Sequence record: PZ452611.1
DNA length: 64,000 nucleotides
Source: a phage
Direction: 5' to 3' (one strand)
The notes below the pieces were generated by a model. The model was given only the letters and a program-made list of their open reading frames with translations, was not told the origin of the DNA and did not search any database. The translations under genes and the position numbers were made by a program. This document shows, piece by piece, positions 18,017-59,889 of this stretch. The first letter of the stretch is position 1. Each line of letters opens with the position of its first letter.

Positions 18017-18298
18017 TCAGTCCAGCGGTTCATCCTCTACTTCACTGAAATCAATGTTCATGGTCTCTTCCCAACCATCGATCTCAGCACAAGAGTGAAG
18101 TTCTTTAGGGTTTACTCCCAAAGCCTCAGCAACAGAGTCTATATTTAACACCTCTGGCAGGTATGATTCATCGAATTCAAGGTAAATCAGGCCACGAGTG
18201 TTGTCAGCCCCACCAAATATTTCTATCTTCATGAAATCTCCTCTGGAAATGAGAGTGTGAACAGGGTTTATACGTTCCAATGCACTGGAATTATGCAC
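18017..18298 (-). CDS. acidic hypothetical protein
   Basis: 93 aa; first ORF of minus-strand block. Confidence 0.45.
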   Translation of the reverse strand: MHNSSALERINPVHTLISRGDFMKIEIFGGADNTRGLIYLEFDESYLPEVLNIDSVAEALGVNPKELHSCAEIDGWEETMNIDFSEVEDEPLD

Positions 18299-18352
18299 GT
18301 TTGCCTCTTCAGGCCATGCTTTAGCATGAGGAACCTGTGTGGGCTCGGTGCT

Positions 18353-18658
18353 TCATAGTCTACCACCCCTGAACTCTTCGTGCTCAGGCATAATAGAGAA
18401 CCAGATATCTACGATGTCCTCCCACGTCAGGTCATCAGCCTCAGGATCTATCTGGAGCGAAGATGGAGAATCTTCAGAATCGAAGTTTTCCTCTTTCGCT
18501 GGCTCAGCCAAGGGACATATAGTCACTCCTTTGGATGTCTCTTCAGATGCATGTGTGTTTATCATGTTCCACCCGTGAGTATTCCTGCAACAGCTGCTAT
18601 GGACGTAATGATCATCAGGATCACCACCAAAACTTCGGACAATGTTTTCATTGTGCAC
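18353..18658 (-). CDS. acidic hypothetical protein
   Basis: 101 aa ORF. Confidence 0.45.
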   Translation of the reverse strand: MHNENIVRSFGGDPDDHYVHSSCCRNTHGWNMINTHASEETSKGVTICPLAEPAKEENFDSEDSPSSLQIDPEADDLTWEDIVDIWFSIMPEHEEFRGGRL

Positions 18659-18925
18659 TCCATATTCTCTAGACTATGTGTTGATACTATCACTGGAGCG
18701 GTAATGTGTCAACAGAAACGCCGCGAGGGTTTGGTTAAAATCCGAGCGTATGGTGATTTGGGTCAAAACGGACGTGCGTTCTCGCTACGCTCGAAAGAGA
18801 GATTTGTTTGTAGACCGTCCTTAAACGCTCTGTAACGAGATTATCTGTCCAAGGTATGCAATCGTGCACCAGATAAAGAAAAGGACGCCACAGAGCGTCC
18901 TAGGTGTCTTAAATTTGATATTTTG

Positions 18926-19237
18926 CTATACCCATGAGGGTTTATCAAGGTTGGAGTAGCTGAAAGGTGTCAAAAGGTGATTGTCAAAATCTCTCAAACT
19001 ATCCAGATCTTTTTCCTCGTCCTGGCACCATCTGTGCCTACATTTATTGTTGTAGTGCATAGAATGCATAGCGTTCTGCAACTTAACAGGTACAAGTGAT
19101 TCAGGAGTAGATAGTATTGTTGGGTATGCCAGAACCACCTCAAACAGTGGAAACACATCGAAACTAAAGTCTACCTCTGCAGAGGTTGATGGCATATAGG
19201 AGTATTTAGCCGCCTTTGTAGACATAATCCACCTCAC
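18926..19237 (-). CDS. hypothetical protein
   Basis: 103 aa, 4 nt overlap with upstream gene. Confidence 0.45.
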   Translation of the reverse strand: MRWIMSTKAAKYSYMPSTSAEVDFSFDVFPLFEVVLAYPTILSTPESLVPVKLQNAMHSMHYNNKCRHRWCQDEEKDLDSLRDFDNHLLTPFSYSNLDKPSWV

Positions 19238-19566
19238 ACAGGTTTGATAATACCTTTACCGAATAACTCTTCGTATCTAATCCTATCCGGATCCCACTCC
19301 TGGATAATTTCGAAGACAATATCCAACCCTGGGATGATCACTTCTCCAGTGTCAAGCTTAGCAAGAACAAAACCGGAAGGTTGAATGGTTTCCCAGTTAC
19401 GGCGATCAGAGTAGAGTACTTCGAAAATATCACCAACCTCAACCCGTTTCTGTTGCTCAAGATGCTCCAGGTTCTCTTTCATGCGGATGCAGCGGATTTT
19501 TCGTGCAGGCCATAGACCGCCTGCATCACGTTCATTTAGCTCTTTTACAGTAATCGGTATACCCAT
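19234..19566 (-). CDS. hypothetical protein
   Basis: 110 aa ORF. Confidence 0.5.
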   Translation of the reverse strand: MGIPITVKELNERDAGGLWPARKIRCIRMKENLEHLEQQKRVEVGDIFEVLYSDRRNWETIQPSGFVLAKLDTGEVIIPGLDIVFEIIQEWDPDRIRYEELFGKGIIKPV

Positions 19567-19621
19567 CCCAAATCTCCTTCATAGATAGTAAAAAGAGGGG
19601 CCCAAGCCCCCCTCTTTGTCA

Positions 19622-19927
19622 TTATTCTACAGAGCGTTTGAACAGAATGTCTGCCTCGGACATGTGCTCAACCTCTTCTTCGATTTTAGCTCGACGTTTT
19701 TCAGCCTCATAGCGAATATCGAACTCAGTAGCCACCAGAGATTTGATGAATTTAGGAGAATACAGATGATCCTGCTTCTCAACGAGAATGATATCCTTAA
19801 TGGCATCTTTCAGATCTTTAATCTGAAGTTGGAGTTCCACCAGTTCTTCGATTGTTTTGCGAAGGCGATCACGCTCTGCAGTGTCAGAAGGAAGAGAGGT
19901 GAACAGTTCAACTTTAGATTTAGCCAT
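19622..19927 (-). CDS. coiled-coil hypothetical protein
   Basis: 101 aa; preferred over antisense + ORF 19616-19954 because the flanking ORF block is on the minus strand. Confidence 0.45.
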   Translation of the reverse strand: MAKSKVELFTSLPSDTAERDRLRKTIEELVELQLQIKDLKDAIKDIILVEKQDHLYSPKFIKSLVATEFDIRYEAEKRRAKIEEEVEHMSEADILFKRSVE

Positions 19928-19955
19928 AGTAAGAGTCTCCTTATGTTGTTTTAAA

Positions 19956-20273
19956 TTAACGTTCTACAAAAATACCGTTCAGTTCAATAACCAGGAATTT
20001 CTGGTCTTCACTATCGTCTCGTGCCAGCACCTCACAGACGTATCGGTCATCTCCATCATCATCGCAGTCAAATACAAGACTGAGAACTTTATCATGATAA
20101 ACCTTCGCCACTACCGCCTCGTAAGTATTGCCGATTGTGAATCCAAGATAATCTCCAATGCATTTGACAACAACATGATCGCCAGCATTCAAGTCAATCT
20201 TCGTCATTACTGCGCTCCTTGGGTAATAATATTGTATGTAAAACTTTAACCAGAGATGTGAATAACGCCCCAA
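19956..20273 (-). CDS. hypothetical protein
   Basis: ORF; real start probably internal Met (MTKIDLN). Confidence 0.45.
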   Translation of the reverse strand: MGRYSHLWLKFYIQYYYPRSAVMTKIDLNAGDHVVVKCIGDYLGFTIGNTYEAVVAKVYHDKVLSLVFDCDDDGDDRYVCEVLARDDSEDQKFLVIELNGIFVER

Positions 20274-32692: not shown

Positions 32693-33043
32693 TTACTGCA
32701 ACAGTTTTTCAATAGCCGCTTCCATGCTGCTTGCAACAGCCTGAACTCGGATATTCATCTCTTCTTGGTGGATCAGCTCCTTAAGCTCTTTAACGGTAAA
32801 TTCTTTAGAGAAACCTTCCACCATGATCTTGTGCAAGGCTTCTTGCGTGTCCACTTGCAAGAACTTTTCCAGTTTGTTGGCAGAGGCTTCTAAATCAGCC
32901 CGAATACGAGGGTCATCTGTGCGATTCAGCATTAGACGTAAGCCATCAAGATTAGTAGAAATAGCATCTGCATGTTGAGTAACTAACCGTGGCAAAATGA
33001 GATCTACAAACTTATTAGCCAAATCGATACGTTCTTGTGTCAC
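32693..33043 (-). CDS. hypothetical protein
   Basis: 116 aa, GTG start. Confidence 0.45.
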   Translation of the reverse strand: MTQERIDLANKFVDLILPRLVTQHADAISTNLDGLRLMLNRTDDPRIRADLEASANKLEKFLQVDTQEALHKIMVEGFSKEFTVKELKELIHQEEMNIRVQAVASSMEAAIEKLLQ

Positions 33044-33153
33044 TGTTGCACCCCCTCTTCATCCTCATGATATTTCTTTTCACGCTTGTGTTTTTTCTTA
33101 AGCTCAAGCGCAATCTCTTTTTTGTACGCCTTCTTCAAGGCTTTTTTAGCCAT
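33040..33153 (-). CDS. small Lys-rich basic protein (37 aa)
   Basis: GGAGGTG RBS; stop overlaps downstream start; below track cutoff. Confidence 0.35.
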   Translation of the reverse strand: MAKKALKKAYKKEIALELKKKHKREKKYHEDEEGVQQ

Positions 33154-33215
33154 TTGGCACCTCCTCTGCTTTCATTACGACAATTATAACCAACTTAACA
33201 AAGCTTTGTCAACGA

Positions 33216-33689
33216 TTAGTCAACCTGAACCCAACCACCTGCTACCTTTTTAAACATTCTTTGGTTATCACTGCCTCTAAAGGGTTTTTTGGTGGGGTTA
33301 TCTTTTTCGTACTTACCATCCATAATGTAATCAACACTATCTTTAATGTGATCAGGGACTTCTTCAAACAAATACCCTGTGTACACCCAGATAGTTTTTG
33401 TGTTGCCGAAGCGTTCACGGATAGCACAAATGATTGAATACATACCATCAATATTGTAAGGCGCTAAAGGCTCGCCACCGCATAATGTAACGCCGGTAAT
33501 ATGGTTTGGTTCTATAGAGCTAAGTATGCTCTCAATTGTGTCATTTGTTAACGGTTCCCCTTTAGCTGGGGACCAAACACTTTTGTTTTGGCAACCTACG
33601 CAGTGATGTGGACAACCAGAACAGAACACTGTTGTCCTAATACCTGGGCCGTCAACCATGCTACACTCTATAATATTAACAACATTCAT
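33216..33689 (-). CDS. nrdG: anaerobic ribonucleotide reductase activating protein (radical SAM)
   Basis: CPHHCVGC radical-SAM cysteine motif; adjacent to nrdD. Confidence 0.85.
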   Translation of the reverse strand: MNVVNIIECSMVDGPGIRTTVFCSGCPHHCVGCQNKSVWSPAKGEPLTNDTIESILSSIEPNHITGVTLCGGEPLAPYNIDGMYSIICAIRERFGNTKTIWVYTGYLFEEVPDHIKDSVDYIMDGKYEKDNPTKKPFRGSDNQRMFKKVAGGWVQVD

Positions 33690-33922
33690 TCCTTGCCCTC
33701 TTTGAGGTAGGGATATTCAGGCCCACAATAATCTCTATCTAAGAAAACAGCTTCTTCCCCTCTGGAATCAGTAGATTTATAATACCCATCACCCTGGTAA
33801 CTAACGAACCAGTAGCACCCATCATCGCTTTCTACTGTTGTGGCTCTGTCCGAATGAAAGATAATTTCGTAATCCTTACCGAATGTAAACCATCTGTTAG
33901 CTTTTACACAGACACCTATCAT
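33686..33922 (-). CDS. hypothetical protein
   Basis: 78 aa, coupled to nrdG. Confidence 0.45.
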   Translation of the reverse strand: MIGVCVKANRWFTFGKDYEIIFHSDRATTVESDDGCYWFVSYQGDGYYKSTDSRGEEAVFLDRDYCGPEYPYLKEGKE

Positions 33923-34073
33923 AAGGAACCTCTCTTCTGTGGTGTGCTTCTATTCAAGATAAGCTTATAAAAGTCCATTTGATGAAGCCGTATAACTTTT
34001 TATACTTACGCTTCAATGCTAACAATTTTATCTTGATTTTCTTGATAGATTTCCGCATTTCGACCCCTTATGC

Positions 34074-34190
34074 TTATAAGTACTCCGCGTCGCATTCAGG
34101 ACAATGCCAAATAAAATCGTCCAGTGCCTTGCACCAACGAAGATTGCAACGACAACCACACTTGCAAATTTTATAAATACCTTTAGACAT
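34074..34190 (-). CDS. small Cys-rich zinc-ribbon peptide (38 aa)
   Basis: AGGAGG RBS; CKCGCRC...HCPEC. Confidence 0.35.
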   Translation of the reverse strand: MSKGIYKICKCGCRCNLRWCKALDDFIWHCPECDAEYL

Positions 34191-34251
34191 ACTGTACCTC
34201 CTAGTTCACTGTGCCAACAATATGCCACATCCTTGTGGCTTTTGTCAAGTA

Positions 34252-36375
34252 TCAGCAACCACAACTTCCGTAGTGCTTAACCCGTTCTATAACTTCCGCT
34301 TGCTTACCTTTATTGTAAGGACGGGAGTTAGGACTGGAAAGGTATCCAGACACACGTCGAATTACGCTGATCGTTCCCTCTTCATGGTTTCCACACTCTG
34401 GACATACAAAGCCTTTAGCTGTTGCACTGAACTCACCAGAGAAACCACACTTGAGACATTTATCCACAGGCTGGTTGATACCAAAATACATAATGTGTTT
34501 ATATCCGAAATCAACAAGAGCTTCCAAAGCATCTAAGTTGTTTTTCAGATTTGGTGTCTCTACGTATCCGATGTTGCCACCAGAAGAGATCATAGCAAAA
34601 CCTTCCTCATACTCCCACTTATCAAAAGGAGAGCTATTGATCCATACTGGCTGATGGAAACTGTTGGTGAGATATTCATGCTCGTGCTTCAACACTTCAG
34701 GATATTCACGATCCAGACAGGTTGCAGCTTTATAGCATAGACTCTCAGAAGGGGTGCCGTACAAGCTAAACGCTAGTCTACTTTCCTTCTTGTATCGCTC
34801 ACAAGCATCTCTCATGTGCTGAAGTATTCCAAGAGCTAAAGCCTTGTCACCCTCCCTGCCCAAAATCTGACAGGTTTCATACACACCAATATACCCAATA
34901 CTGATGGAAGCGTACCCGTCATAGAAGAGTTTATCAATACTCTCTTCAGGATCCAGGCGAGCAAGAGCGCCTTCACACCACATGATAGGGTTCTGCCCTG
35001 CCTTTGTTCCTTTTAGACGGTTAACCCTTACAAGGTGAGCTTCATACGCCAAATCCAGATACTCGTCAAGAACTGCAAAGAAATCAACACCTTCCGTTTT
35101 AGCTTTTGCCGCAATCATTGGCAGGTTAAGGCTAACAACGCCTAAGTTAAATCTGCCAAGGTATTTCTCCTCGCCTGTTTCCAAGTCATTGTATTTGCTA
35201 AGAAAACTCCGGCAACCCATGCTCGTTACTTTACCATCTGTCGAGCCTGTCACTTTACGATTTAGTGGAACAGAAACAAAGTCAGGATAAATCCGCTCTG
35301 CAGAGCATTCCAGAGCTAATCGTTTCAAATCATAGTTAGGATCTCCAGGGTTCATGTTGACACCCTCTTCTAGGAAGAACAGCACTTTAGGGAACACAGG
35401 TGTGATACGTTCTTCACCAAGACCCATTTTGTGGACTTTCAAGTAGTTTTTGGTAATCATTCTACCAAAGACCGAGGTATCCAGTCCTAAACTTAATGTT
35501 ATGAATGGAGTTTGCCCGTTGACAGAAGTTAACGTATTGATTTGATAGAGCAAAGTCTGCATGCTGTCAAATACGTCTTTATCTGTCATTTGCATTGCAA
35601 CAGTCTCAGCATCTGGCAACCAATGTTCCTGGCAAAATTTAAGGTTCTTCTCATAGGTCGCTTCAGCATACTGTGCCAGATAATGATCAATATGGCTCAT
35701 AGTCTGACCCCCATATTGAGCACTAGCTACTGCACTAGAGATTTGGCTAAGGATTGTTGTTGCAACCCCTATTGACTTAGGCTTACTGACATGGGCGTTA
35801 CCAATGTTGAATCCGTTTTCCAACATATCTGGATAATTTACCAAACAACAGTTTGTTAACGGACTGATCAAGTAGTCAAGATCATGCACATGGATGAAGC
35901 CTCTATTGTGCTCTTCTGAGACACGGTCTGGCAGGATCTGTGTTGATGCAAGGTGTTTGCTAAGGATGCCTGCAAGCAGGTCACGATGAGTGTGTACATG
36001 ATTGGTAGGCTTATTTGCGTTTTCTTTTGTAAATTCATCACAAGTGCGATCCAAGAAGCCACTAATATCTGCAAGCAGTTTTCCACCTGCCTCTCTGTTA
36101 TTATCTCTTGTCTGCCTATACTGGATGTATTCTCTGGCTGCACATTTTAAACCCATATCCATAAGAGCGTCTTCAACAAGGATATGGATATTTTTTACAG
36201 AGATCGTGCACTGGTCGGTTGGTAGATTGTTAGCAACAACTTCATTAACCGCGCAGGCGATCCGGTAAGCTTCTTCTTCAGTATGTCCAGACTCAAGTAA
36301 GGCGGACTCTGCCGCCTTGATCACCTTAATTCCGTTATAGAACTCTTCTCTACCGTCCCGTTTTACAACTTTCAC
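34252..36375 (-). CDS. nrdD: anaerobic ribonucleoside-triphosphate reductase (class III)
   Basis: 707 aa; C-terminal glycyl-radical motif RVSGYL and Cys cluster. Confidence 0.9.
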   Translation of the reverse strand: MKVVKRDGREEFYNGIKVIKAAESALLESGHTEEEAYRIACAVNEVVANNLPTDQCTISVKNIHILVEDALMDMGLKCAAREYIQYRQTRDNNREAGGKLLADISGFLDRTCDEFTKENANKPTNHVHTHRDLLAGILSKHLASTQILPDRVSEEHNRGFIHVHDLDYLISPLTNCCLVNYPDMLENGFNIGNAHVSKPKSIGVATTILSQISSAVASAQYGGQTMSHIDHYLAQYAEATYEKNLKFCQEHWLPDAETVAMQMTDKDVFDSMQTLLYQINTLTSVNGQTPFITLSLGLDTSVFGRMITKNYLKVHKMGLGEERITPVFPKVLFFLEEGVNMNPGDPNYDLKRLALECSAERIYPDFVSVPLNRKVTGSTDGKVTSMGCRSFLSKYNDLETGEEKYLGRFNLGVVSLNLPMIAAKAKTEGVDFFAVLDEYLDLAYEAHLVRVNRLKGTKAGQNPIMWCEGALARLDPEESIDKLFYDGYASISIGYIGVYETCQILGREGDKALALGILQHMRDACERYKKESRLAFSLYGTPSESLCYKAATCLDREYPEVLKHEHEYLTNSFHQPVWINSSPFDKWEYEEGFAMISSGGNIGYVETPNLKNNLDALEALVDFGYKHIMYFGINQPVDKCLKCGFSGEFSATAKGFVCPECGNHEEGTISVIRRVSGYLSSPNSRPYNKGKQAEVIERVKHYGSCGC

Positions 36376-36650
36376 TTTTTCTCTCCAAAACCATTTTTAA
36401 CAAAAGAGATGAAATCGTCGGCACCGCCTATATGGACACTTTCAAGATTGCTTTCTAAGAAGATCTGCGGCAACGTTCTGGGTACGATTGGACTGCACTT
36501 CTCAATAAGCTCTTCTTTTGTGTAACCCTCGCCAAGTGTCTTATATACAAAAGGCAGACCTTTACTGACTGCAAATTCTTTTGCTCTTACACAATGTGGG
36601 CAGTTATCTTTACCGTAAATAATAAAGAAAAAAGATTTTTCACAGCTCAT
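36372..36650 (-). CDS. glutaredoxin-like protein
   Basis: CPHC active site, 92 aa, between nrdB and nrdD. Confidence 0.7.
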   Translation of the reverse strand: MSCEKSFFFIIYGKDNCPHCVRAKEFAVSKGLPFVYKTLGEGYTKEELIEKCSPIVPRTLPQIFLESNLESVHIGGADDFISFVKNGFGEKK

Positions 36651-36653
36651 GTA

Positions 36654-37742
36654 TTAAAACTCCCAAATTTCTTCTTCAGCGTCGTTAACAGTTGTGTTGA
36701 CGCGGTAGTCAGTGTTCGACATTTCTTGGTTCGCCGTCTGTTGCAATGAAGGTTTCATCCACACCTGCATAAACGGTAGAGGGTCCTTTGTTGGCGGCAC
36801 AAAGTCTTTGTCGATGCCATAGTAATCATAAATTGGTGAGCAGTTATAGTCAACCCATTCTTTAAGCAACGGTGAGTTAAGACCTATAATCGCTCTTCCC
36901 TCGCTGAAAATATAGTCACTCCAACCGTACTCTTTGGTTCGTACTTCATCAAGAATCTCTTTTAACTCCCCTTTTATCTCAAGGAAGCTTTTCTCCCATG
37001 CCGGATCATTAAGCAGGATATCAATGATGGCAAAATCACCTTTCGAGTGTAGCATTTCGTCAAGCATGATTTTTTGAACAAGCTGCGCCACCTGAACAAA
37101 AATACCCTGTTCAGCTACTGCGAAAGTGCATGCAAAACTTGCAATAAACTCAATACTTTCCAGGGCTAAAAGTGCAAAAAGCGCTCTAAGAATGCATTTC
37201 CGCACAATATCTTCTTTAACACTAGAAGGATCCAGTCGGTATTTTGCACCAATAACCTCAAGCTCTTGCATGTATTTGACAATAACGCCAGATCTGCTCA
37301 GAACGTTTTGGTTTTCCTGAATCTCTTCTATAATCTCACGGGCATTGGGGAGGCATTGTCTAACAATCTCTGAGTAAGTTAGTGCGTGAAGAACTTCAAT
37401 CTCTGACTGTTTCATCAATAGAGTGAAAAGCTCACTATTAGTGATGAATGGTGAAAAGAGGCAGATGATCGATCTTGCCGCAACGCTATCAGCCTCCCAT
37501 TGCCACATCAAGGTCTGCACCATCACATCATAAGTTGACTTGGAGCATGTTACAAAATCTGAAATAGATTGCGACAAATCAACTTCATCCTCTGCCCAGT
37601 CTTGTTCTTTTTGTTTTTTGTATAGTTCAAACAGTTGTGGATATTTTTTGTTGATAGAGTCGTACATACCCATTTGCTGTCCTAGAAACAGCGGATAGTC
37701 ACCAGTTTTATGAGCGGTGTTCTCAGCATTAAATACAGCCAT
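36654..37742 (-). CDS. nrdB: ribonucleotide reductase class Ia small subunit
   Basis: 362 aa ferritin-like protein immediately downstream of nrdA. Confidence 0.8.
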   Translation of the reverse strand: MAVFNAENTAHKTGDYPLFLGQQMGMYDSINKKYPQLFELYKKQKEQDWAEDEVDLSQSISDFVTCSKSTYDVMVQTLMWQWEADSVAARSIICLFSPFITNSELFTLLMKQSEIEVLHALTYSEIVRQCLPNAREIIEEIQENQNVLSRSGVIVKYMQELEVIGAKYRLDPSSVKEDIVRKCILRALFALLALESIEFIASFACTFAVAEQGIFVQVAQLVQKIMLDEMLHSKGDFAIIDILLNDPAWEKSFLEIKGELKEILDEVRTKEYGWSDYIFSEGRAIIGLNSPLLKEWVDYNCSPIYDYYGIDKDFVPPTKDPLPFMQVWMKPSLQQTANQEMSNTDYRVNTTVNDAEEEIWEF

Positions 37743-37781
37743 TATTCTAACCTCTAAAATGGGGCCGAAGCCCCTTTAAAA

Positions 37782-40097
37782 TTATAGTGCACAACTTTCG
37801 CAATACGGATCTTCAACTGAACTATCTGCAATCAAAGGATAGTTCTTTCTGGTTTCATCTTCAGCCTGCTTCTTGGCATGAAGTTCCTCTGCCAAGGAGT
37901 CACCAGCACCAACCCTGGAGTTTAAATAATACCATGTCTTCATCCCGAATTTAGTGGCACGGATAAGGTACCCTAGCTGCTCCTTCATTGAAATTTTACC
38001 ATCTTTCAACTTGGTGTAGTCTATGTATAAATCCGCGCTGATTGCCTGACCTGTGAATTTTTGAATCACAGCATACATATCGATCATGTCGTTAGTATCA
38101 ACGTCCCAAGCCGAGGTGTAATACTCTTTCAACTCATCATAGTCAGGAACGATAAACAGCACCTGCCCTTGTGGCGATTTTTTAAAGATAATGTGCTCAC
38201 GGACAGGATAAACCCCATTAGTGGTGTTTGTTGCCAGCGAAGAGCTTTCATTAGGCATATATGCTTCAAGAACGCTATTACGTAGCCCACCATTTTCAAT
38301 GATTTCTTTACGTAACCCTTCCCAATCCTGTTTAAGAGAAGGATCTTTCACCACGCTATCGACCTCTTTGTTATAGGTGTCGATTGGTAACCAACCTTCT
38401 GGATATTTTGTTTTATGCATCCACTCGCAGACACCACGCTCTTTTGCCAACCGTAAACTTGCCTTATGCAAGCTGTAGCTGTGAAGTTCTGCAAGATCGT
38501 GAACAAGCTGTTTACTTTCAGGAGATCCGTAAGTAACCTTGTGGCTGGCAATAAAATGTGCAACATTGGTAAGGCCAACTCCGATGGATCTGCGTTTTTT
38601 AACAGTGCTCTCCATATTTTCATACGGATATGTCATGATTTCCATAACATTGTCAATCATAAGCACCGTGTAATATGCAACATCCTCATACTCCTCTGGG
38701 GTAACCCTTCCAGCTACAAGTGATGACAGGAAGCACAATGCAACTTCGCCATCATCAACATCGTGCTTGAAGATATTACGCATATCTGAATAGCCTTTTG
38801 TCGGGAGGGCTATTTCTGCACACAGGTTACTTGAATAGATCACATCTTTAAAAGGTGTATGTCTATTCATCTCGTCTGTCCAGTATACGAACAGCCTTCC
38901 AACCTCAATACGCTGCGTGAGCAGTTCAACAGCAAGATCTCTAGCTCGGATCCATGTTTTAGGAATACTGTCATCTTTAGCGATACGATCAACCTCTGCA
39001 TCAAACTCCTCCATAGACATGGTGAAGATACCTTCATGCAGTTGAGGCGCGTGCTTATAAGAAACAAGCATCCAATCTAAATTCTTAGCCACACGGTTGA
39101 TAAACGACCTATTAATACCTATAGAGTAGTCCATGGTGTTGATTCTTTTTGAAGCAACAGTCATAGGGTTTCTCAAACGGATTAGCTCATCAATCTGCGG
39201 GTCTAGTGCAAGGAATGATACTGTTGCAGAACCGCCACGTGATTGTTGTCTGTTCTCCTTAACCCCAGCATCAATACCTCGATAATATGGAATCTTACCC
39301 ATGTGTTTAATAGTGTTACCACGAACACCATCGCCTGCAGATCTTGATGATAAATAGTAGCCGATACCTGCTTGGTTAACCGTCATTGTGTACGCAACTT
39401 CACGTGCCACACCAATAGATTTTGCTGTATCATCAGCTTTTATTACACAACAAGATGCATACCCTGTCTTACCTGTGCGCAGCCCGTTTAAGTACGGTGT
39501 CGGGGCATTGATCTTTAAGTCGGACAGATAAGTGTATAATTTTACAACATCGTTGATACGACGTTCTTTCGGCATATTCTTCATGACAGCCATTGCTATC
39601 CCCATAAACATCATCTGGGGAGATTCAAACAAGGTGTCTTTAAGAGTATCCTTGATCCCGTATTTGTCGCGAAACTGTTTAAGGACTGCATAGCCATAAC
39701 CGAGATCTTTACTGTGGTCAATAACAGCGTCTAAAGTGTTTAGCTCGGTAAAGCTATAGCCCATATCCTCCCAATACCCTTTCTCAACCATGGTATTGTA
39801 AAATGATGGTAAGGAAGGGATCTTTGTAAACCCTCCAAAAGCCTCTTTATAAATCTGACCAATAAGAACACGACCAGCCATACGGGAATGTTCTTCGTCT
39901 TTACGGCTAACACAGGAGTCTATGATAGCTTGGTTAACTTCTTTGGTTGTACATCCATCATACAGTCGTTTGTATGCATCCAGTGCAATATGTGACCAAT
40001 TGCCGTTACCGTCGTCACCGAAAATAGCTGCCTTATTTAAACGTTCTGGATCGAATGCCACTTCACATCCGTTGCTTTTAATTACCTTGGTGATCAA
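37782..40097 (-). CDS. nrdA: ribonucleotide reductase class Ia large subunit
   Basis: 771 aa; N-terminal ATP-cone, NLCAEIALPT active site, C-terminal CESC. Confidence 0.9.
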   Translation of the reverse strand: MITKVIKSNGCEVAFDPERLNKAAIFGDDGNGNWSHIALDAYKRLYDGCTTKEVNQAIIDSCVSRKDEEHSRMAGRVLIGQIYKEAFGGFTKIPSLPSFYNTMVEKGYWEDMGYSFTELNTLDAVIDHSKDLGYGYAVLKQFRDKYGIKDTLKDTLFESPQMMFMGIAMAVMKNMPKERRINDVVKLYTYLSDLKINAPTPYLNGLRTGKTGYASCCVIKADDTAKSIGVAREVAYTMTVNQAGIGYYLSSRSAGDGVRGNTIKHMGKIPYYRGIDAGVKENRQQSRGGSATVSFLALDPQIDELIRLRNPMTVASKRINTMDYSIGINRSFINRVAKNLDWMLVSYKHAPQLHEGIFTMSMEEFDAEVDRIAKDDSIPKTWIRARDLAVELLTQRIEVGRLFVYWTDEMNRHTPFKDVIYSSNLCAEIALPTKGYSDMRNIFKHDVDDGEVALCFLSSLVAGRVTPEEYEDVAYYTVLMIDNVMEIMTYPYENMESTVKKRRSIGVGLTNVAHFIASHKVTYGSPESKQLVHDLAELHSYSLHKASLRLAKERGVCEWMHKTKYPEGWLPIDTYNKEVDSVVKDPSLKQDWEGLRKEIIENGGLRNSVLEAYMPNESSSLATNTTNGVYPVREHIIFKKSPQGQVLFIVPDYDELKEYYTSAWDVDTNDMIDMYAVIQKFTGQAISADLYIDYTKLKDGKISMKEQLGYLIRATKFGMKTWYYLNSRVGAGDSLAEELHAKKQAEDETRKNYPLIADSSVEDPYCESCAL

Positions 40098-40345
40098 TTT
40101 GCTTCCTCCACTTCATTAACGTATTTATCAAGGCAGGTATCAGTATCTTGCTGGATAAAGGTATCCTCTTCTACAGAGATATTTATAATTTTACCTGTAT
40201 ACTCGTCATAATAAACATCATCATACATTTTAATATCGTTTGTCAGGCCGTTGAACCAAAGCCAGCCAACATATTCTGCCCGACTTGCAAAACCAAGATC
40301 CTTCCACTTGGAGTTATGACTCATCTTCACCACCTTAGCTTTCAA
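40094..40345 (-). CDS. hypothetical protein
   Basis: 83 aa, coupled to nrdA. Confidence 0.45.
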   Translation of the reverse strand: MKAKVVKMSHNSKWKDLGFASRAEYVGWLWFNGLTNDIKMYDDVYYDEYTGKIINISVEEDTFIQQDTDTCLDKYVNEVEEAN

Positions 40346-40835
40346 TACCGAATAATTTTTCTAGGCGATGCAGATCTTCAAAATTGAAAGGTTCATCAAC
40401 AATATGAATATCTTCAGCCTTTTCAGATTGTTTTGTATATTTTCTTACATTAACACGATCCTCTACAGGGATATCATACGGAAGATCTTGAACAAGCATT
40501 GCCTCACCAGGTGCTTTATCTACATCTAAAATATCTACACCGTTATACATTTGTGGGTATCTAAAGTCTGCACGCATGACACCAGCAAATACATCTGCCT
40601 TTCGATAATGGGTTGGCTTATTTTTGCATCTAACGTTTTTTCCACGAAGAACATCAATATTTTTTAAATCAAACCCTACGGCGAAGAGTGCAGCTCGGAG
40701 ACCGTTTCGTGTGCGAACGTTAAACCCAGGTACGGTAGCTAGGAAATCTAAAGTAACTGAAATAAATGTCTTTTTAGGAATCATAACATTACTCATATCT
40801 GTCTCCATTTCTGGCTCACCAACAAAGTGAGCCAT
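40335..40835 (-). CDS. hypothetical protein
   Basis: 166 aa; no motif recognised. Confidence 0.45.
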   Translation of the reverse strand: MAHFVGEPEMETDMSNVMIPKKTFISVTLDFLATVPGFNVRTRNGLRAALFAVGFDLKNIDVLRGKNVRCKNKPTHYRKADVFAGVMRADFRYPQMYNGVDILDVDKAPGEAMLVQDLPYDIPVEDRVNVRKYTKQSEKAEDIHIVDEPFNFEDLHRLEKLFGIES

Positions 40836-40894
40836 TATTATAGATTATCTGATACTATTAGTCAACACAAAAGTTACCTATCGCTGTGATAGGA

Positions 40895-41878
40895 TTAACC
40901 TTTCACGAAGTGGTTATTAAGCAGTTGTCTGTGCTGAACCCACCCACAAAAGTTGGCAGACCAGAATTTACCATCACGGTCTTGATGGGTTACACCTTCC
41001 TGCCAAGTACTAATGTCTTGTGTGATTTCACATGAAGACAGGTAGTAGTTTAAACGTTCCATTGCGTTATCGTGATCCATAGGTGTTGCCTGGTGTTCGT
41101 AAGGGCTTGCATGAATACGATCCCCACCAATCAATTTTTTAGCCACACTGTCTGCCTTTTCAAACGTACTGTCAATATTTCGATAAGATACTTGTGCACA
41201 GCAACTAGCACTAATAGACAGAGCTTCTTTAGTATCAAGAATGCAGAGCTTTCCTTCTGTGTCACGTACAGCGTAGTTAAACTCTCCGTCCAAATAAACG
41301 TGCTCTACATATGGAGTGTGCCATTGACCTGGTTTAAGGATTTCAGGAGTGCTATTCACAAGAGCTTCCCACATACAATTAGCCAACATCTGAATCGTAG
41401 GATCCGCATCGTGCCAGCAACGGAGATGGAAAAAATTATTCCACTCTGTGCTTGTTACAACTGTTTTCATGCGTTGGAACGGCTCTACTAAGCGGTTACA
41501 TACTTGTTTATGGTAACCAGCAAGGGCGAACTTCTCTGCATGCCAAGCGGCGTTTTTTGCAGCTTCTTTCCAAAACTCTTCAGGGGTTAGCTCCATGTCA
41601 GTGTACTCTACACGGATCTTTTGATCGTGTTCCCCACCATCTTCCATCCCTTGCTTATTTACACCGAAGCGAACTGGCATTGCCGGATTCTCCACAATCT
41701 GCTGCAGCATCTTGCCGACAGGCACTGCACGGGAAGACATGGCGTTTCGGCTGAATACTCGATGCGTCATAAGCTCTGAGTGAATAATTCGAGGATACTC
41801 TAGCTCAAAAGTGGTGATGCGCTTACCTTTCTCGGAAATGCTGTCAGCAATGATCTTTGCAGTGCACAGTTTTAGCAT
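40895..41878 (-). CDS. ThyX-like flavin-dependent thymidylate synthase, putative
   Basis: HRVFSRNAMSSR resembles ThyX RHR-x7-S motif; nucleotide-metabolism context; 327 aa is longer than typical ThyX. Confidence 0.4.
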   Translation of the reverse strand: MLKLCTAKIIADSISEKGKRITTFELEYPRIIHSELMTHRVFSRNAMSSRAVPVGKMLQQIVENPAMPVRFGVNKQGMEDGGEHDQKIRVEYTDMELTPEEFWKEAAKNAAWHAEKFALAGYHKQVCNRLVEPFQRMKTVVTSTEWNNFFHLRCWHDADPTIQMLANCMWEALVNSTPEILKPGQWHTPYVEHVYLDGEFNYAVRDTEGKLCILDTKEALSISASCCAQVSYRNIDSTFEKADSVAKKLIGGDRIHASPYEHQATPMDHDNAMERLNYYLSSCEITQDISTWQEGVTHQDRDGKFWSANFCGWVQHRQLLNNHFVKG

Positions 41879-42078
41879 TATTTAGCTCTCCTTGTTTTAA
41901 TTTTGGAAATTTCGTCTGGGTTTATATTGGCCTTAAATGCAAGGTATCTGTTAAACATATCAGAGCACATGTCTTGGGTGATCCTGGAGGCATACACTAG
42001 CTTACCCCCCAGATCATATACCTCCAGCCAGTCACCGTATCTGACTACAGGATCTCCACCTTTAGAACATCTGCCCAT
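41878..42078 (-). CDS. hypothetical protein
   Basis: 66 aa ORF. Confidence 0.4.
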   Translation of the reverse strand: MGRCSKGGDPVVRYGDWLEVYDLGGKLVYASRITQDMCSDMFNRYLAFKANINPDEISKIKTRRAK

Positions 42079-42079
42079 T

Positions 42080-42673
42080 TCAAATACCTTCTAAAAACTT
42101 TCCTATTTTATACCAACTATTAGCGGTATAGTCAACACTGACCTTTAACTCCTCGAATTGCTCATAAGGCGTATCTTTTAGGATTTTAATAACTTCAGGT
42201 CGTGAAGCGAATTGGTTAAGGTATTCATGCCTGTCGTCAATTATAACATCTACAGCCACATTTCCTTTGAAATGTGTGGCGTAGAAGCCGTGACCCTGGG
42301 TGTGATCGTCCAGATCCATAAAATCACTGGTCCAACGCTTTAAGAACCTTGATTTAGATGCAAGGTGACCTTTCTTGCATACCGAGATAAATGCAAGCTT
42401 GTGACCACGAGCCACCAAATCTTTCATAACCTCAATAGCCCCCTCTTCAGGCTTAAGAAAGTCGTAGAGGAATGGGTCACTCCAGAAATCAAAAGGCCCT
42501 ATGATGTTTTCTTTGGGGCGATCAGGCCAATACTTTGGCAGATCGTAATACATCAGCCCATTAGAAGGTTTAACGACTGTCTTACTGGCTGGACCATACA
42601 AACGCTCCAACCACTCCCACCATGCTGTTCCTGAATCTACCAGTGTCAAATCTACATCAATTCCGATTAACAT
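42080..42673 (-). CDS. HAD-family phosphatase, putative 5'-deoxyribonucleotidase
   Basis: N-terminal GIDVDLTL (DxDxT) HAD motif. Confidence 0.5.
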   Translation of the reverse strand: MLIGIDVDLTLVDSGTAWWEWLERLYGPASKTVVKPSNGLMYYDLPKYWPDRPKENIIGPFDFWSDPFLYDFLKPEEGAIEVMKDLVARGHKLAFISVCKKGHLASKSRFLKRWTSDFMDLDDHTQGHGFYATHFKGNVAVDVIIDDRHEYLNQFASRPEVIKILKDTPYEQFEELKVSVDYTANSWYKIGKFLEGI

Positions 42674-43284
42674 TCTTCTTGGGCCTCTTTAGCATCAATA
42701 TACTTGCACACAATCTCCGATGCACATTCCCAAGGTGCACCTTCAGGATTTACAACATCGAACTCAATCCCTTTTATTCCGTTCTTTTCCAGACTTAGAT
42801 AGGTTCTGGAATCATTTCCCCAGTCATATCCGACACGGTGAATACGGAACAACAACAGATCTCCACCTGTGCTGTATGCGTACTCACTAAGGCATGCCAG
42901 CTCCTCTTTGAATCCACCATCGGAGTAAACAACAACCCCTTTACCTTTAGGGAAATCTTTCTTCAAGGATGTGACTGCGGCCTTACCGAAAGCATCTTCA
43001 CCAAAGATAGGTTTAATCAGATTTTCACTACAATGGATCATCCATTCTCGCGGAGAAACATGCTTGCCGTCTATCATTAAGAAAGGGCAAGGCTCTTCTT
43101 TGTAGTGGCGGTCATAAAGTGCATTCCAGAGTTGAGGAGTTACACCAGCTGCCTTAATTGCCACGCTGAAGAGCATCTCCTTAACCTCACGGTGGTGTGA
43201 GTTAGGAATAGCTTCCAACAAGAGATCTGCAATGTGATCCTTACCACTGCTGGGTGGGGCGTTAAGAACAATAATATCCATCAA
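42667..43284 (-). CDS. deoxynucleoside monophosphate kinase-like P-loop protein
   Basis: P-loop NAPPSSGKD; resembles T4 gp1 N-terminus. Confidence 0.55.
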   Translation of the reverse strand: MMDIIVLNAPPSSGKDHIADLLLEAIPNSHHREVKEMLFSVAIKAAGVTPQLWNALYDRHYKEEPCPFLMIDGKHVSPREWMIHCSENLIKPIFGEDAFGKAAVTSLKKDFPKGKGVVVYSDGGFKEELACLSEYAYSTGGDLLLFRIHRVGYDWGNDSRTYLSLEKNGIKGIEFDVVNPEGAPWECASEIVCKYIDAKEAQEEC

Positions 43285-43484
43285 AAACCTCCGTGGTATT
43301 CTTCAACTGCATCAATAATACTTTTACACTTATCTACCAGCTCGTTAGCCACTACAGCATCGTCTTCCCAAACAGCTTCCTCAATCTGATCAAGCAATGA
43401 TCGCATCTTGCCCATCATTTCTGGGATAAAGTTTTCTGAAAAGCTGTCTGGAATTGTTAACTTTAGTGTCATTGCGGTCTCCAA
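43281..43484 (-). CDS. hypothetical protein
   Basis: 67 aa ORF. Confidence 0.4.
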   Translation of the reverse strand: METAMTLKLTIPDSFSENFIPEMMGKMRSLLDQIEEAVWEDDAVVANELVDKCKSIIDAVEEYHGGF

Positions 43485-54317: not shown

Positions 54318-55249
54318 TGCATATAGTCCTCGTTGTGGAAATAGCAGTCCAGTATCTCGCGACGCTCCTGCTCTAATAAGCAATTCCACACATCTTCTGT
54401 ATAGTTGCTACGAATAAATTTTACCATACCGTAAAACTCCTCGTCAACACGTTTAAAAATATCGTCATCCCAAATCTTCCATGCTTTACCTCTCATTACG
54501 GCCTTCCGTGCCAAATAGTATGGAGACTTGATCTTCAGCTGCAGGTCATAAGGGTAGTAAGGCTTACGGATCATATACCCTTCGCCCCTTGTTTCTGCAG
54601 CTAATTCTTTTGCATAGCTGAACGGGATTTCACGCACAGTGTGAGGACGTTTTGCACCAAGGTATTTGGCAATCCCATCTAAAGCTGCTTCTGGTAGCAT
54701 TATTCCAGAATCATTATATCTGCAACCTATCAAATATGCGCCATGGTCTTCTTGAACAATATGCGGATCTGAAGGGTGACAAATTTCAAACATGAATGTC
54801 ATGTTTTCATTGCCCATAACCTTCTTGATAAGATCTAAATCACCACATTGCTCTTGGATGGTTTCCTTTGCAAGGTTACAATATGGAGAATCAAGAGACC
54901 CGGTTGTTGAGAACAATAGGTCACCTTTATGAGATGATACCACACCAAGGAATCCGTTCTTTTTCTCTACCGCAGTAACAAGTTTACTGTCCGGTAGGTT
55001 GGTGGAGTTTTCTCCTAAGTTGAATACTTTTGTGAAAGGCCATGCCACAACATTCCCCTCATTGCCAACAACAATACCTCGGCACTCCAGTAAACGCGGA
55101 GACAAATGCCACAGATTGTTGTAGAATACTTTTCTGGCATATTTATAGATCTTTAATCCAAGATCTGGATAATACCGACTGGTTACAAGACCTTTGTCTA
55201 CTAGGTCATCTGCATTAAAATACTTCATCATACGTTCCTCATTTGTCAT
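54314..55249 (-). CDS. RNA ligase, T4 Rnl1-like
   Basis: LLECRGIVV and KVFNLGEN match T4 Rnl1 (LPDALECRGIMF, KFFNLNEN); nucleotidyltransferase KxNG motif EKKNG. Confidence 0.8.
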   Translation of the reverse strand: MTNEERMMKYFNADDLVDKGLVTSRYYPDLGLKIYKYARKVFYNNLWHLSPRLLECRGIVVGNEGNVVAWPFTKVFNLGENSTNLPDSKLVTAVEKKNGFLGVVSSHKGDLLFSTTGSLDSPYCNLAKETIQEQCGDLDLIKKVMGNENMTFMFEICHPSDPHIVQEDHGAYLIGCRYNDSGIMLPEAALDGIAKYLGAKRPHTVREIPFSYAKELAAETRGEGYMIRKPYYPYDLQLKIKSPYYLARKAVMRGKAWKIWDDDIFKRVDEEFYGMVKFIRSNYTEDVWNCLLEQERREILDCYFHNEDYMQ

Positions 55250-55293
55250 TTTGTCAGTCTATCCTGCCACACAAATAACCTAGTGTCAACACT

Positions 55294-55321
55294 TGAAATT
55301 AACAAAACAGTTAGGTATACT
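55294..55321 (+). promoter_or_regulatory. sigma70-like promoter TTGAAA-N16-TATACT in divergent intergenic region
   Basis: strand switch between Rnl1 (minus) and kinase (plus). Confidence 0.45.
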
Positions 55322-55349
55322 ATCATTAAAATTAAAACGGAGGATTGCT

Positions 55350-55760
55350 ATGTCTAAAATGCTATATATCGTGCGTGGTCTGCCAGGGTCTGGCAAATCA
55401 ACACTGGCAAATGCGCTATCTTTAGAAGGTCTGTATCCACATTTTGAGAACGACATGTTCTGGTATGACGATGACGGCAATTACAACTGGGATGCAAGTA
55501 AAGTAACACTCGCAGCAAAATGGTGCAAAGATAACGTAGAAGATATGATGCGTATGGGATACGACCGTATCGTGGTAAGTAATACGTTTACAAAAGAAAA
55601 ACATGTGCAGGAATATGTTGACATGGCAATCAGTCATGGGTATAGTTATACCGTGATCGTGGTTGAAAACCGCCACGGTAATAAAAGCATTCATGATGTT
55701 CCAGACAAGGTTGTGGATCGTATGGAACGCCAGCTTAAAAACTGCATTAAACTTAAATGA
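55350..55760 (+). CDS. P-loop polynucleotide kinase-like protein
   Basis: LYIVRGLPGSGKST Walker A as in T4 Pnkp kinase domain; start moved to Met after GGAGG (track 55293). Confidence 0.6.
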   Translation: MSKMLYIVRGLPGSGKSTLANALSLEGLYPHFENDMFWYDDDGNYNWDASKVTLAAKWCKDNVEDMMRMGYDRIVVSNTFTKEKHVQEYVDMAISHGYSYTVIVVENRHGNKSIHDVPDKVVDRMERQLKNCIKLK

Positions 55761-55767
55761 GGAATGT

Positions 55768-56322
55768 ATGAAATACTTTGTAACAAGCGACACACACTTT
55801 CTCCACCAGCGGGTCATGGAGTTTGATTCATGTCAAAAACACAGATCTCAGTATGATCACAATCTTGACAGTATGAATGCGGGAATCATCGCCGAGTGGA
55901 ACTCTGTTGTGTCACCTGCAGACACTGTGTTCCACTTGGGAGATATTGCGTGCACTAATGATAAGAATATCAACAAATTACTTCCAGATATTCTAAATAT
56001 GTTGAACGGACATATTATTCTTGTTCGTGGCAACCATGACACAAGGACGACTGTCAGAATTATGAAAGAGTTCTATCACGAGGTTGTAGATTATTACGAG
56101 CTTCGCCACAACAAGAATTTGATCTGTATGAGCCATTACCAATTTGCAAAGTGGAACAGAAAGCCTCACGGATCAGTCCAACTGTTCGGTCATGCTCACG
56201 GAACCACACAACAGTTGTTTGGCAGGCAGCTTGATGTCGGTTGGGATGTGTGGGGGAGACTCTTACCATTAGAAGAGGCATACCGTACTGCAATGAGTTT
56301 TGATATTGACAGCAGGGAGTAA
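55768..56322 (+). CDS. calcineurin-like metallophosphoesterase
   Basis: DTHF, GDIA, VRGNHD motifs; start moved to MKYFVTSD (track 55663). Confidence 0.7.
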   Translation: MKYFVTSDTHFLHQRVMEFDSCQKHRSQYDHNLDSMNAGIIAEWNSVVSPADTVFHLGDIACTNDKNINKLLPDILNMLNGHIILVRGNHDTRTTVRIMKEFYHEVVDYYELRHNKNLICMSHYQFAKWNRKPHGSVQLFGHAHGTTQQLFGRQLDVGWDVWGRLLPLEEAYRTAMSFDIDSRE

Positions 56323-59239: not shown

Positions 59240-59314
59240 GCCCTGTTAGCTTAGTGGATAAAGCAGCGGCCTTCTAAGCCGTTGACACTGGTTCGAGTCC
59301 AGTACGGGGTGCCA
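59240..59314 (+). tRNA. tRNA-Arg (anticodon TCT)
   Basis: hand-folded cloverleaf: 7 bp acceptor with two G-U pairs, anticodon loop CTTCTAA, T-loop TTCGAGT, CCA encoded. Confidence 0.75.
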
Positions 59315-59318
59315 AATT

Positions 59319-59405
59319 GGGGAGTTATCCCGTAGAGGTAGCGGTGTAGACTGTAAATCTATTGTCATTGCGACTCGGGTGGTTCGACTCCACCACTCCC
59401 CACCA
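59319..59405 (+). tRNA. tRNA-Tyr (anticodon GTA)
   Basis: perfect 7 bp acceptor GGGGAGT/ACTCCCC, loop CTGTAAA, long variable arm, T-loop TTCGACT, CCA. Confidence 0.8.
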
Positions 59406-59805: not shown

Positions 59806-59812
59806 CCTTTTT

Positions 59813-59888: not shown

Positions 59889-59889
59889 A

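Follow-up and report, generated by a model that had tools for sequence, protein, structure and literature searches.

A deoxynucleotide-supply cluster in Escherichia phage rV5 and its putative ThyX protein with an apparently relocated flavin/folate segment

The 64,000-nucleotide stretch of phage DNA analyzed here (sequence record PZ452611.1; hereafter, the window) carries, at positions 33,216 to 43,284, a set of genes that is very probably the leftward-transcribed deoxynucleotide-supply cluster of the lytic Escherichia coli myovirus rV5 (genus Vequintavirus). One of these genes encodes gp102, a predicted flavin-dependent thymidylate synthase of the ThyX family, in which the segment bearing the flavin/folate motif appears to have been moved from its usual place to a position behind the core. 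We regard as evenly balanced the proposal that gp102 represents an undescribed, phage-dominant architectural class of ThyX, characterized by transposition of the flavin/folate module after the core, by replacement of the residues equivalent to R78, E86, and Y91 of the Thermotoga maritima enzyme (Tm), and by being the target of at least three inteins.

The locus

Between 33000 and 43300, the window matches Escherichia phage V5/rV5 (NC_011041.1, DQ832317.1) and E. coli O157 typing phage 5 (KP869103.1) with 100% identity, and roughly a hundred further Vequintavirus genomes with an identity of 97-98%; in all, 152 related phage records were retrieved for this interval. The list of open reading frames (ORFs) forms an unbroken run of minus-strand genes across the cluster. 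A preliminary description of this DNA had reported contiguous minus-strand genes for NrdG, NrdD, a glutaredoxin, NrdB, NrdA, a ThyX-like protein, a nucleotidase of the haloacid dehalogenase (HAD) type, and a deoxynucleoside monophosphate (dNMP) kinase. All of them were found in the ORF list at the positions given there, and the functional assignments were upheld by profile scores, active-site alignments, and PHROG membership. What tempers our view of the cluster is that every enzyme function in it is deduced from sequence.

Clusters of this kind are typical of large lytic phages, and this one has already been published. In the 2013 paper on the rV5 genome, the subunits of the aerobic and anaerobic reductases are listed, together with the thymidylate synthase and the terminase introns (PMC3606486), and the deposited rV5 annotation labels NrdG, NrdD, glutaredoxin, NrdB, NrdA, and a 'FAD-dependent thymidylate synthase'. 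The region is uniform in G+C content (0.41-0.43) and in strand skew, and neither gives any sign of a compositionally foreign island.

Fold and layout of the ThyX-like protein

In the preliminary description, gp102 had been called ThyX-like from a degenerate motif, with the reservation that the protein was longer than a typical ThyX. This caution was justified, and the question is resolved here in favor of ThyX. The protein has 327 residues, compared with 216-250 in canonical ThyX, and its version of the ThyX motif R-H-R-x(2)-S-x(4)-S-x-R reads T38-H-R-V-F-S-R-N-A-M-S-S-R50, the first Arg being replaced by an invariant Thr. A PDB search with the single sequence gave no match, and the Pfam and NCBIfam models align only through profile positions 60-190/207, to gp102 residues 22-180.

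The fold itself is more recognizable. An AlphaFold2 (AF2) model built from a 28-sequence alignment reached a predicted local distance difference test score (pLDDT) of 76 and a predicted template modeling score (pTM) of 0.77. In a Foldseek search with this model, all 68 of the 68 PDB matches at E<=1e-3 were ThyX or PolB structures. They comprise PolB and the ThyX proteins of Paramecium bursaria chlorella virus 1 (PBCV-1), T. maritima, Mycobacterium tuberculosis, and Thermus thermophilus, and the matches are partial, with template modeling scores (TM-scores) to the target of 0.45-0.57. On the basis of this model, gp102 is predicted to be a true ThyX-fold protein, with the same fold as the canonical enzymes (T. 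maritima TM0449, PDB 1O26/1KQ4; PBCV-1 A674R, PDB 2CFA/4FZB).

Its layout is distinctive, with a core at residues 19-200 and an apparently relocated helix pair, ending in the motif H256-A-S-P-Y-E-H262, at residues 222-262. Three regions have no canonical ThyX counterpart, namely a loop specific to the family (54-100), a linker (179-221, about 40 residues), and a tail (263-327, about 65 residues). The family to which gp102 belongs is large, and its members mostly have 320-345 residues.

Proposed relocation of the flavin/folate segment

In canonical ThyX, a helix pair followed by the flavin/folate motif H-x-S/T-P-x-E-H lies between strands 2 and 3. This segment, which corresponds to Tm residues 21-59, would sit behind the core in gp102, at residues 222-262. 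A profile search of the PDB matched three stretches out of order: gp102 residues 229-272 to Tm 33-74, 21-50 to Tm 73-102, and 132-180 to Tm 165-213. Similarly, when gp102 was aligned with hhalign to a 25-sequence profile of canonical ThyX (whose T. maritima sequence was confirmed against PDB 1KQ4), the native order gave two separate matches, one of residues 222-264 to Tm 21-61 (E 1e-3) and the other of residues 19-196 to Tm 59-211 (E 0.05). With residues 201-268 or 215-265 set directly before residue 19, the result was one alignment over Tm 20-202, with a probability of 85% and an E value of 6e-6. In the control alignments, in which other 51-residue segments were placed there or residues 215-265 were moved elsewhere, the hhalign probability was 2-9.5%.

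The Pfam Thy1 model behaved in the same way: its coverage grew from positions 60-190 in the native order, in which no colinear match over the whole Thy1 domain was obtained, to positions 15-190, with a gain of 6 bits, when residues 201-268 preceded residues 19-200. The relocated order would thus explain why Pfam matches gp102 only in part and why the protein is longer than other ThyX proteins. We describe the arrangement as the relocation of a segment, and not as a clean circular permutation, because only the placement of residues 201-268 or 215-265 before residue 19 merges the matches. A simple circular permutation was rejected, as cuts at residue 181 or 201 fail to merge them and the tail parts the module from the core. 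The idea that the tail is a remnant of a second ThyX copy was also discarded: GWVQHRQ resembles QWFRHR, but the likeness covers 6 columns (E 0.14).

It could be argued that the relocation is an artefact of alignment, in which case H-A-S-P-Y-E-H would be a chance likeness in a protein made of a ThyX core with unrelated extensions. Several observations point in this direction and weigh against relocation: no local match is strong by itself (E 1e-3 to 0.05), hhalign yields statistics that are modest on an absolute scale, with 85% as the highest probability, the AF2 model is of low confidence (pLDDT 45-71) in both the relocated module and the tail, and Foldseek aligns only parts of the chain. However, the match spans 41 columns and includes both helices, and thus reaches beyond the motif alone, and rearrangement improves the alignment only when that segment is placed at that position. 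In addition, H256, A257, S258, P259, E261, and H262 do not vary within the family, an intein lies inside this motif in some members, and the most distant phage homologs align through residue ~264-275. The native N-terminus, for its part, contains no counterpart of Tm 21-59; without the relocated segment, gp102 would have no H53/E58 element. Taken against these points, we consider an artefact to be unlikely.

Relocation of the module is also sterically plausible, since several subunits of the tetramer meet to build a ThyX active site. In the assembled tetramer, the relocated module could probably occupy the same position as its canonical equivalent.

Active-site residues and likely product

The preliminary description had tied its ThyX assignment to the presence of residues that bind FAD or deoxyuridine monophosphate (dUMP). 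Most flavin- and dUMP-positioning residues are indeed present and, over the 28 family members examined, invariant. In the relocated module, H53, T55, E58, and H59 of Tm ThyX correspond to H256, S258, E261, and H262 of gp102, which gives an equivalent of the H53-x-T/S-P-x-E-H59 element. In the core (T38-H39-R40...S48-x-R50, R129, N148, R153), the motif H79-R80...S88-x-R90 is matched by H39, R40, S48, and R50, while R147 (approximately), N169, and R174 are matched by R129, N148, and R153. Among these Tm residues, H53, E58, H79, R147, N169, and R174 presumably contribute the contacts to flavin, folate, or dUMP. The differences from canonical ThyX concern the placement of the Tm 21-59 segment after the core, the change of R78/E86/Y91 to T/A/A, and the extra loop, linker, and tail. 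Roles have been given for R78, R80, S88, and R90, and R78 is one of four T. maritima residues stated to hydrogen-bond dUMP (PMC3498832).

The proposed activity of gp102 is that of an ordinary thymidylate synthase: it would methylate dUMP to deoxythymidine monophosphate (dTMP) with methylene-tetrahydrofolate and NADPH through FAD, and such chemistry would remove the need for dihydrofolate reductase. A different product can also be envisaged. In that case, gp102 would be a ThyX-fold flavoenzyme that acts on another nucleotide, as does PolB, which methylates UMP, or that makes a C5-modified pyrimidine, and the neighboring nucleotidase and kinase would belong to a modified-base pathway. Its score of 40 bits falls below the NCBIfam thyX equivalog cutoff of 87.9, invariant T38, A46, and A51 stand in place of Tm R78, E86, and Y91, and T142, T144, and D157 in place of Tm N163, R165, and H178 (invariant). 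These features count against a canonical activity, as do the conserved family-specific tail, the conserved loop residues P65, P68, F71, G72, N74, G77, M78, D80, and G82, and the presence of PolB among the fold matches; furthermore, no characterized member of the gp102-type family was found in the literature searched.

On the other hand, the remaining canonical dUMP- and flavin-positioning residues are kept, and the same gene is present in about 1,000 very different phages. We know of no report of modified thymine in phages with a gp102-type gene, although this was not checked phage by phage. The Vequintavirinae have been described as 'exceptionally susceptible' to restriction-modification (RM) systems (PMC8594841), and this sensitivity argues against modified DNA and favors ordinary dTMP over a modified base as the product. 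A product other than dTMP therefore seems to us distinctly improbable.

Inteins and distribution of the gp102 family

Sixteen of the best 150 family representatives are considerably longer than gp102, with 520-680 residues. In the four long members that were read, inteins were found at three sites: inside the ThyX motif (MTHR/C...VVHN/CFSRNA, the slashes marking the junctions), beside the R174 equivalent (LRRH/C...SGN/CDAQPE), and inside the relocated motif (KPAH/C...SGN/SSPFEH). The rV5 gene has no intein. A tandem duplication had been considered for the 520-680-residue members and was rejected, as the sequences show inteins instead. Inteins are usually located in conserved catalytic motifs, and the three sites fit the view that all three would be active-site elements.

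The gp102-type architecture is widespread, with 5,484 protein clusters at E<=1e-3, of which 3,276 remain at a threshold of E<=1e-30. Phage records that contain it number 1,036, with a coverage of >=80% in 982, and the phages concerned include phi92-like phages, Vibrio phage ICP1, Pseudomonas pakpunaviruses, N4-like podoviruses, and phiCbK. In the literature searched, no description of a permuted or rearranged ThyX was found, which does not prove that none exists. If the rearranged class proposed here is real and undescribed, the structure-function rules of textbook ThyX may not apply directly to the commonest phage form of the enzyme, and the same goes for ThyX inhibitors. Thousands of phage proteins that are now annotated only by a partial domain match would also gain a structural explanation for their length and their weak match to ThyX.

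Features of the cluster

The coordinates of the genes and promoters are collected in Table 1. Several small genes in it were absent from the preliminary description, namely those of 34 aa (33954-34058), 78 aa (33686-33922), 76/83 aa (40094-40324/40345), and 66 aa (41878-42078).

Table 1. Predicted genes and promoters of the deoxynucleotide-supply cluster (positions in the window; aa, amino acids; RNR, ribonucleotide reductase).
Feature	Position	Strand	Evidence and remarks
37-aa Lys-rich micro-ORF	33040-33153	minus	rV5 gp113; phrog_7670, E 5e-20
Sigma-70 consensus promoter (predicted)	33183-33212	minus	TTGACA-18-TATAAT, 12/12; between nrdG and the 37-aa ORF; annotated in rV5 as P118
nrdG	33216-33689	minus	Predicted radical-SAM activase of class III RNR; TIGR02491 147.3 bits (cutoff 126.1); Pfam Fer4_12 7e-38
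78-aa gene	33686-33922	minus	rV5 gp111; phrog_3249; within the ~386-bp insertion; rV5 and DrSchubert only, among 12 loci
34-aa basic ORF (putative)	33954-34058	minus	rV5 gp110; within the ~386-bp insertion; rV5 and DrSchubert only
38-aa Cys-rich micro-ORF	34074-34190	minus	phrog_20137; 7 Cys, CxCxCxC...C...CPxC
nrdD	34252-36375	minus	Predicted class III (anaerobic) ribonucleoside-triphosphate reductase; NF006732 826 bits (cutoff 657), one stretch 1-702
Glutaredoxin gene (grx)	36372-36650	minus	Pfam Glutaredoxin 1.4e-7, 32 bits (cutoff 22.9)
nrdB	36654-37742	minus	Predicted radical-generating subunit of class Ia RNR; Pfam 1.3e-30
nrdA	37782-40097	minus	Predicted catalytic subunit of class Ia RNR; TIGR02506 499 bits (cutoff 341)
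76-aa protein	40094-40324	minus	rV5 gp104; phrog_5488 8e-42 from residue 8; homologs carry Pfam DUF8047
153-aa protein	40335-40796	minus	rV5 gp103; phrog_5557; 166-aa ORF minus a 13-residue extension
Sigma-70-type promoter (predicted)	40837-40865	minus	TTGACT-17-TATAAT, 11/12; downstream of the ThyX gene; annotated in rV5 as P106
Flavin-dependent thymidylate synthase, ThyX family (predicted)	40895-41878	minus	rV5 gp102; Pfam Thy1 37.5 bits (cutoff 24.8)
66-aa protein	41878-42078	minus	rV5 gp101; phrog_4903; ~60-aa gene at the same position in distant relatives
HAD phosphatase, NT5C (5'(3')-deoxyribonucleotidase) type (predicted)	42080-42673	minus	Pfam NT5C 25.5 bits (cutoff 24.8, marginal), E 1.4e-5; phrog_420
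P-loop (SSGKD) protein, putative dNMP kinase	42667-43281	minus	phrog_139 'dNMP kinase' 2.6e-44, profile 82-265

Ribonucleotide reductases and glutaredoxin

As previously proposed for this DNA, both an aerobic (nrdAB) and an anaerobic (nrdDG) reductase are encoded, and the active sites of the class Ia enzyme, the class III enzyme, and the glutaredoxin are intact in alignments. In NrdA, compared with E. coli R1 (PDB 4R1R), the residues C225, N437, C439, E441, C462, and Y730-Y731 are kept, within the motifs ASCC, SNLCAEIAL, GEVALCFLS, and KTWYYLN, and the C-terminal redox cysteine pair occurs as YCESCAL. Similarly, a PDB alignment of NrdB retains all of the di-iron ligands D84, E115, H118, E204, E238, and H241 (E. 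coli positions), the radical tyrosine Y122, and also W48 and Y356, with the motifs EADS, SEIEVLHALTY, LESIEF, and LDEMLH.

NrdD contains the Pfam domains NRDD (6e-161), Gly_radical (3e-23), and ATP-cone (4e-13, residues 1-91), and its GTG start codon overlaps the grx stop codon. When aligned to T4 NrdD, it keeps TNCCLV (C79), MGCRSF (C290), the RVSGY glycyl-radical motif (IRRVSGYL), and the C-terminal four-cysteine Zn site CLKC...CPEC. In the BASEL annotation of phage DrSchubert, nrdD begins ~70 codons late, which drops the ATP-cone (window positions 36165-36375). The translation of nrdG contains the cluster motif C26-x3-C30-x2-C33 (C26-PHH-C30-VG-C33). The glutaredoxin has its active site CPHC at residues 17-20 and matches the GrxA-type NCBIfam model below the cutoff (8e-14); it is likely to be the reductant of NrdA.

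Together, these enzymes would cover two conditions. The class Ia reductase NrdA plus NrdB would make deoxynucleoside diphosphates when oxygen is present, and the class III glycyl-radical enzyme NrdD, activated by the radical-SAM protein NrdG, would make deoxynucleoside triphosphates without oxygen. The presence of both classes could thus provide phage DNA precursors in oxic and anoxic E. coli habitats.

The rV5 proteins resemble NrdAB, GrxA, and NrdDG of E. coli in that the catalytic, radical-transfer, and metal-ligand residues checked are all kept and the E. coli-type NCBIfam models are matched over their full length in one stretch. They differ in that NrdB and the glutaredoxin score under the cutoffs of the host-type equivalogs and in that the N-terminal ATP-cone of NrdA has diverged, with KSNG in place of KRDG and a Pfam score of 22.2 bits (E 2e-4) that is lower than the gathering score of 25.8. 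The C-terminal Cys pair of rV5 NrdA is CESC; in E. coli NrdA, we take the spacing to be C-x4-C.

The repertoire also recalls that of phage T4 (nrdA, nrdB, nrdC, nrdD, nrdG, td, gene 1), with class Ia and class III reductases, a phage redoxin, a thymidylate synthase, and a dNMP kinase (putative here). NrdD is closely similar to its T4 counterpart (E 3e-167), although it has an ATP-cone that is lacking in the matched T4 chain, the match beginning at query residue 103. Unlike in T4, the rV5 genes form one contiguous cluster that includes an HAD nucleotidase, and the thymidylate synthase is of the ThyX type, whereas that of T4 is of the ThyA type. In addition, rV5 shows no sign of the hydroxymethylase pathway, which is consistent with its RM-sensitive DNA (PMC8594841).

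Introns in the reductase genes

The nrd genes had been described as free of introns, in contrast to the terminase gene, and this is borne out. For each nrd product, the profile match runs over the full length without a break, which leaves no interruption of the coding sequence, and an Rfam search detected no group I intron within 33000-43300. In the 64-kb window, the group I intron model RF00028 matched only at 61572-61850 on the plus strand (84.9 bits); judging from its position, it presumably belongs to the introns that have been reported in the rV5 terminase gene. Just upstream of that intron, at 59240-60049 on the plus strand, six tRNA matches are clustered.

Among sister phages, the intron-free nrdD is a polymorphic state. 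In WalterGehring, nrdD is joined from two pieces, with a homing endonuclease inside it and a second endonuclease gene downstream, and SophiaRose, SYGMH1, JEP1, and nom have insertions, of endonucleases or of other kinds, within nrdD or behind it.

Nucleotidase, kinase-like protein, and small neighboring proteins

The HAD nucleotidase of the preliminary description is supported by the NT5C score, which narrowly exceeds its cutoff, and by motif I, I-D-V-D-L-T, at residues 4-9. The sequence IIDDR near residue 145 provides a C-terminal DD motif, and syntenic homologs also match NT5C. A single-sequence PDB search with this protein gave nothing useful.

The adjacent P-loop protein is probably a dNMP kinase. 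A sequence that we take to be that of T4 gp1 falls in the same PHROG (phrog_139) and in the same profile region (83-261), and the two P-loops align. This shared PHROG is the sole basis of the dNMP-kinase call, a point that tells against it; pairwise BLAST between the two proteins is not significant. The earlier assignment of a dNMP kinase thus holds with respect to the PHROG, and it finds no counterpart among curated models or structures, as searches of Pfam, NCBIfam, and PDB sequences gave no match for this protein.

Two small genes occupy the interval between the ThyX gene and nrdA, where the 153-aa gene and the ~76-aa DUF8047 gene form a fixed pair across genera, the 76-aa protein being syntenic upstream of nrdA. 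For the 153-aa protein, a start at M14 of the longer ORF is indicated jointly by the promoter at 40865-40837, the PHROG alignment, and the N-termini of the homologs. A homology search with the protein of 40335-40835, which had been singled out for such a check, revealed a family of 53 homologs, all from phages or metagenomes, with the conserved motifs SVT-D, NVRC, DILDV, and N-x-RKYTK. No match was found in Pfam, NCBIfam, or the PADLOC defense systems. An AF2 model (pLDDT 76.6) gave no match in a PDB fold search (best E 0.15), and in BFVD it retrieved only uncharacterized phage proteins. Our best guess, held with low confidence, is that the 153-aa protein acts as a partner that assists or regulates either the reductase or the thymidylate synthase.

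Micro-ORFs and the insertion in the anaerobic block

Two micro-ORFs of fewer than 40 codons had been noted previously. Both exist, and the 37-aa ORF at 33040-33153 lies just outside the range of 33216-43284 with which it had been described. Conservation of both was examined in related phages, and both proved to be conserved, with substitutions biased to third codon positions.

The 38-aa Cys-rich ORF is present in 122 phage records, with an identity of 80-100%. In ten sequences, the variable sites per codon position number 4/3/12, with 11 codons that vary only synonymously and 6 with amino-acid changes, and all seven cysteines are invariant in spite of synonymous changes in their codons. The ORF of SophiaRose has an in-frame indel of +9 nt. 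In JES2013, V18, JEP1, S127, and YN3, the stop codon overlaps the nrdG start by 4 bp, which suggests that this ORF is translationally coupled to nrdG in most vequintaviruses. From its CxC and CPxC knuckles, we would guess that the peptide is a small metal-binding knuckle protein. The possibility that it is a copy of the NrdD zinc ribbon was rejected, as the two have only CPEC in common.

The 37-aa Lys-rich ORF is coupled to a downstream 116-aa ORF (32693-33043) and was found in 11/11 relatives examined, with variable sites per codon position of 1/0/5 and one amino-acid change. These occurrences were obtained by a local search with the filter off; tblastn gave none, most likely as a result of its low-complexity filter. 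Outside the genus, the Klebsiella phage KpS8 has a recognizable 46-aa homolog after grx.

ORFs of this size might simply be chance open frames in intergenic spacers. They are very short, none of the sub-40-aa ORFs has a Pfam or NCBIfam match, and the RefSeq annotation of rV5 omits the 38-aa ORF. This explanation is hard to reconcile with the third-position bias in both ORFs, with the invariant cysteines and the in-frame indel, or with the 4-bp overlap with nrdG where the rV5 insertion is absent; nor does it account for the homolog of the 37-aa ORF in another genus. In addition, the frame that competes with the 38-aa ORF, RefSeq rV5 gp109 (75 aa, 34028-34255, minus strand), is broken by stop codons in JES2013, V18, and YN3. 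We therefore consider chance frames to be highly improbable, and the 38-aa and 37-aa ORFs appear to be genuine conserved genes. Because of these stop codons, the gp109 call is probably spurious, and the conserved 38-aa Cys-rich gene should probably replace it.

rV5 has an extra insertion of ~386 bp inside the genus-specific anaerobic block. It lies between the 38-aa ORF and nrdG (~33690-34075) and, among 12 loci, is carried only by rV5 and DrSchubert, so that this region spans 1311 nt here and ~925 nt in most relatives. The 78-aa gene within the insertion (gp111) has 71-76% nucleotide identity to a gene of Rtp-like siphoviruses, and its deposited label of '(putative) minor capsid protein' is unsupported. 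Family searches with the 34-aa basic ORF (gp110) gave no match.

Promoters and conserved gene order

Over the cluster as a whole, promoter-like sites are not more numerous than in shuffled sequence (24 vs 24.4). Table 1 therefore includes only the two near-perfect intergenic sites that coincide with annotated rV5 promoters, which suggest that the cluster holds at least two internal promoters of the sigma-70 type. In the wider window, the GC skew flips sign at ~18000-20000 and at ~55000-56000, as would be expected if transcription changed direction at the two ends of a long leftward block containing the cluster.

The order of the aerobic genes is shared beyond the genus. In Klebsiella phage KpS8 (genus Mydovirus) and in distant phage contigs of ~150 kb, the kinase-like gene is followed by the genes for the NT5C protein, a ~60-aa protein, ThyX, a member of the 153-aa family, a ~76-87-aa protein (DUF8047), NrdA, NrdB, and glutaredoxin, with a phoH gene further downstream. 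KpS8 thus resembles rV5 from the kinase-like gene to the glutaredoxin gene, including the 153-aa and ~76-aa proteins, and also in the 37/46-aa basic micro-ORF and phoH. It differs from rV5 in having no nrdD, no 38-aa Cys-rich ORF, and no nrdG; nrdD and nrdG are likewise not present in the distant ~150-kb contigs that have the same aerobic cluster.

The aerobic half, from the kinase through the glutaredoxin, thus appears to be an old syntenic core of the subfamily. From the absence of nrdD and nrdG in these relatives, the block composed of nrdD, the 38-aa ORF, and nrdG would be a Vequintavirus-specific addition between grx and the 37-aa ORF. Such a genus-specific anaerobic reductase add-on fits an adaptation of the E. 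coli vequintaviruses to the gut. Moreover, the 38-aa gene travels with nrdD and nrdG, which makes it a candidate for a factor that assists the anaerobic reductase.

Finally, ~20 unannotated GenBank records of the MG0656xx series, labeled 'Campylobacter phage' with Campylobacter jejuni as host, are 91-97% identical to the E. coli vequintaviruses in this region, and the host label of these records looks doubtful.

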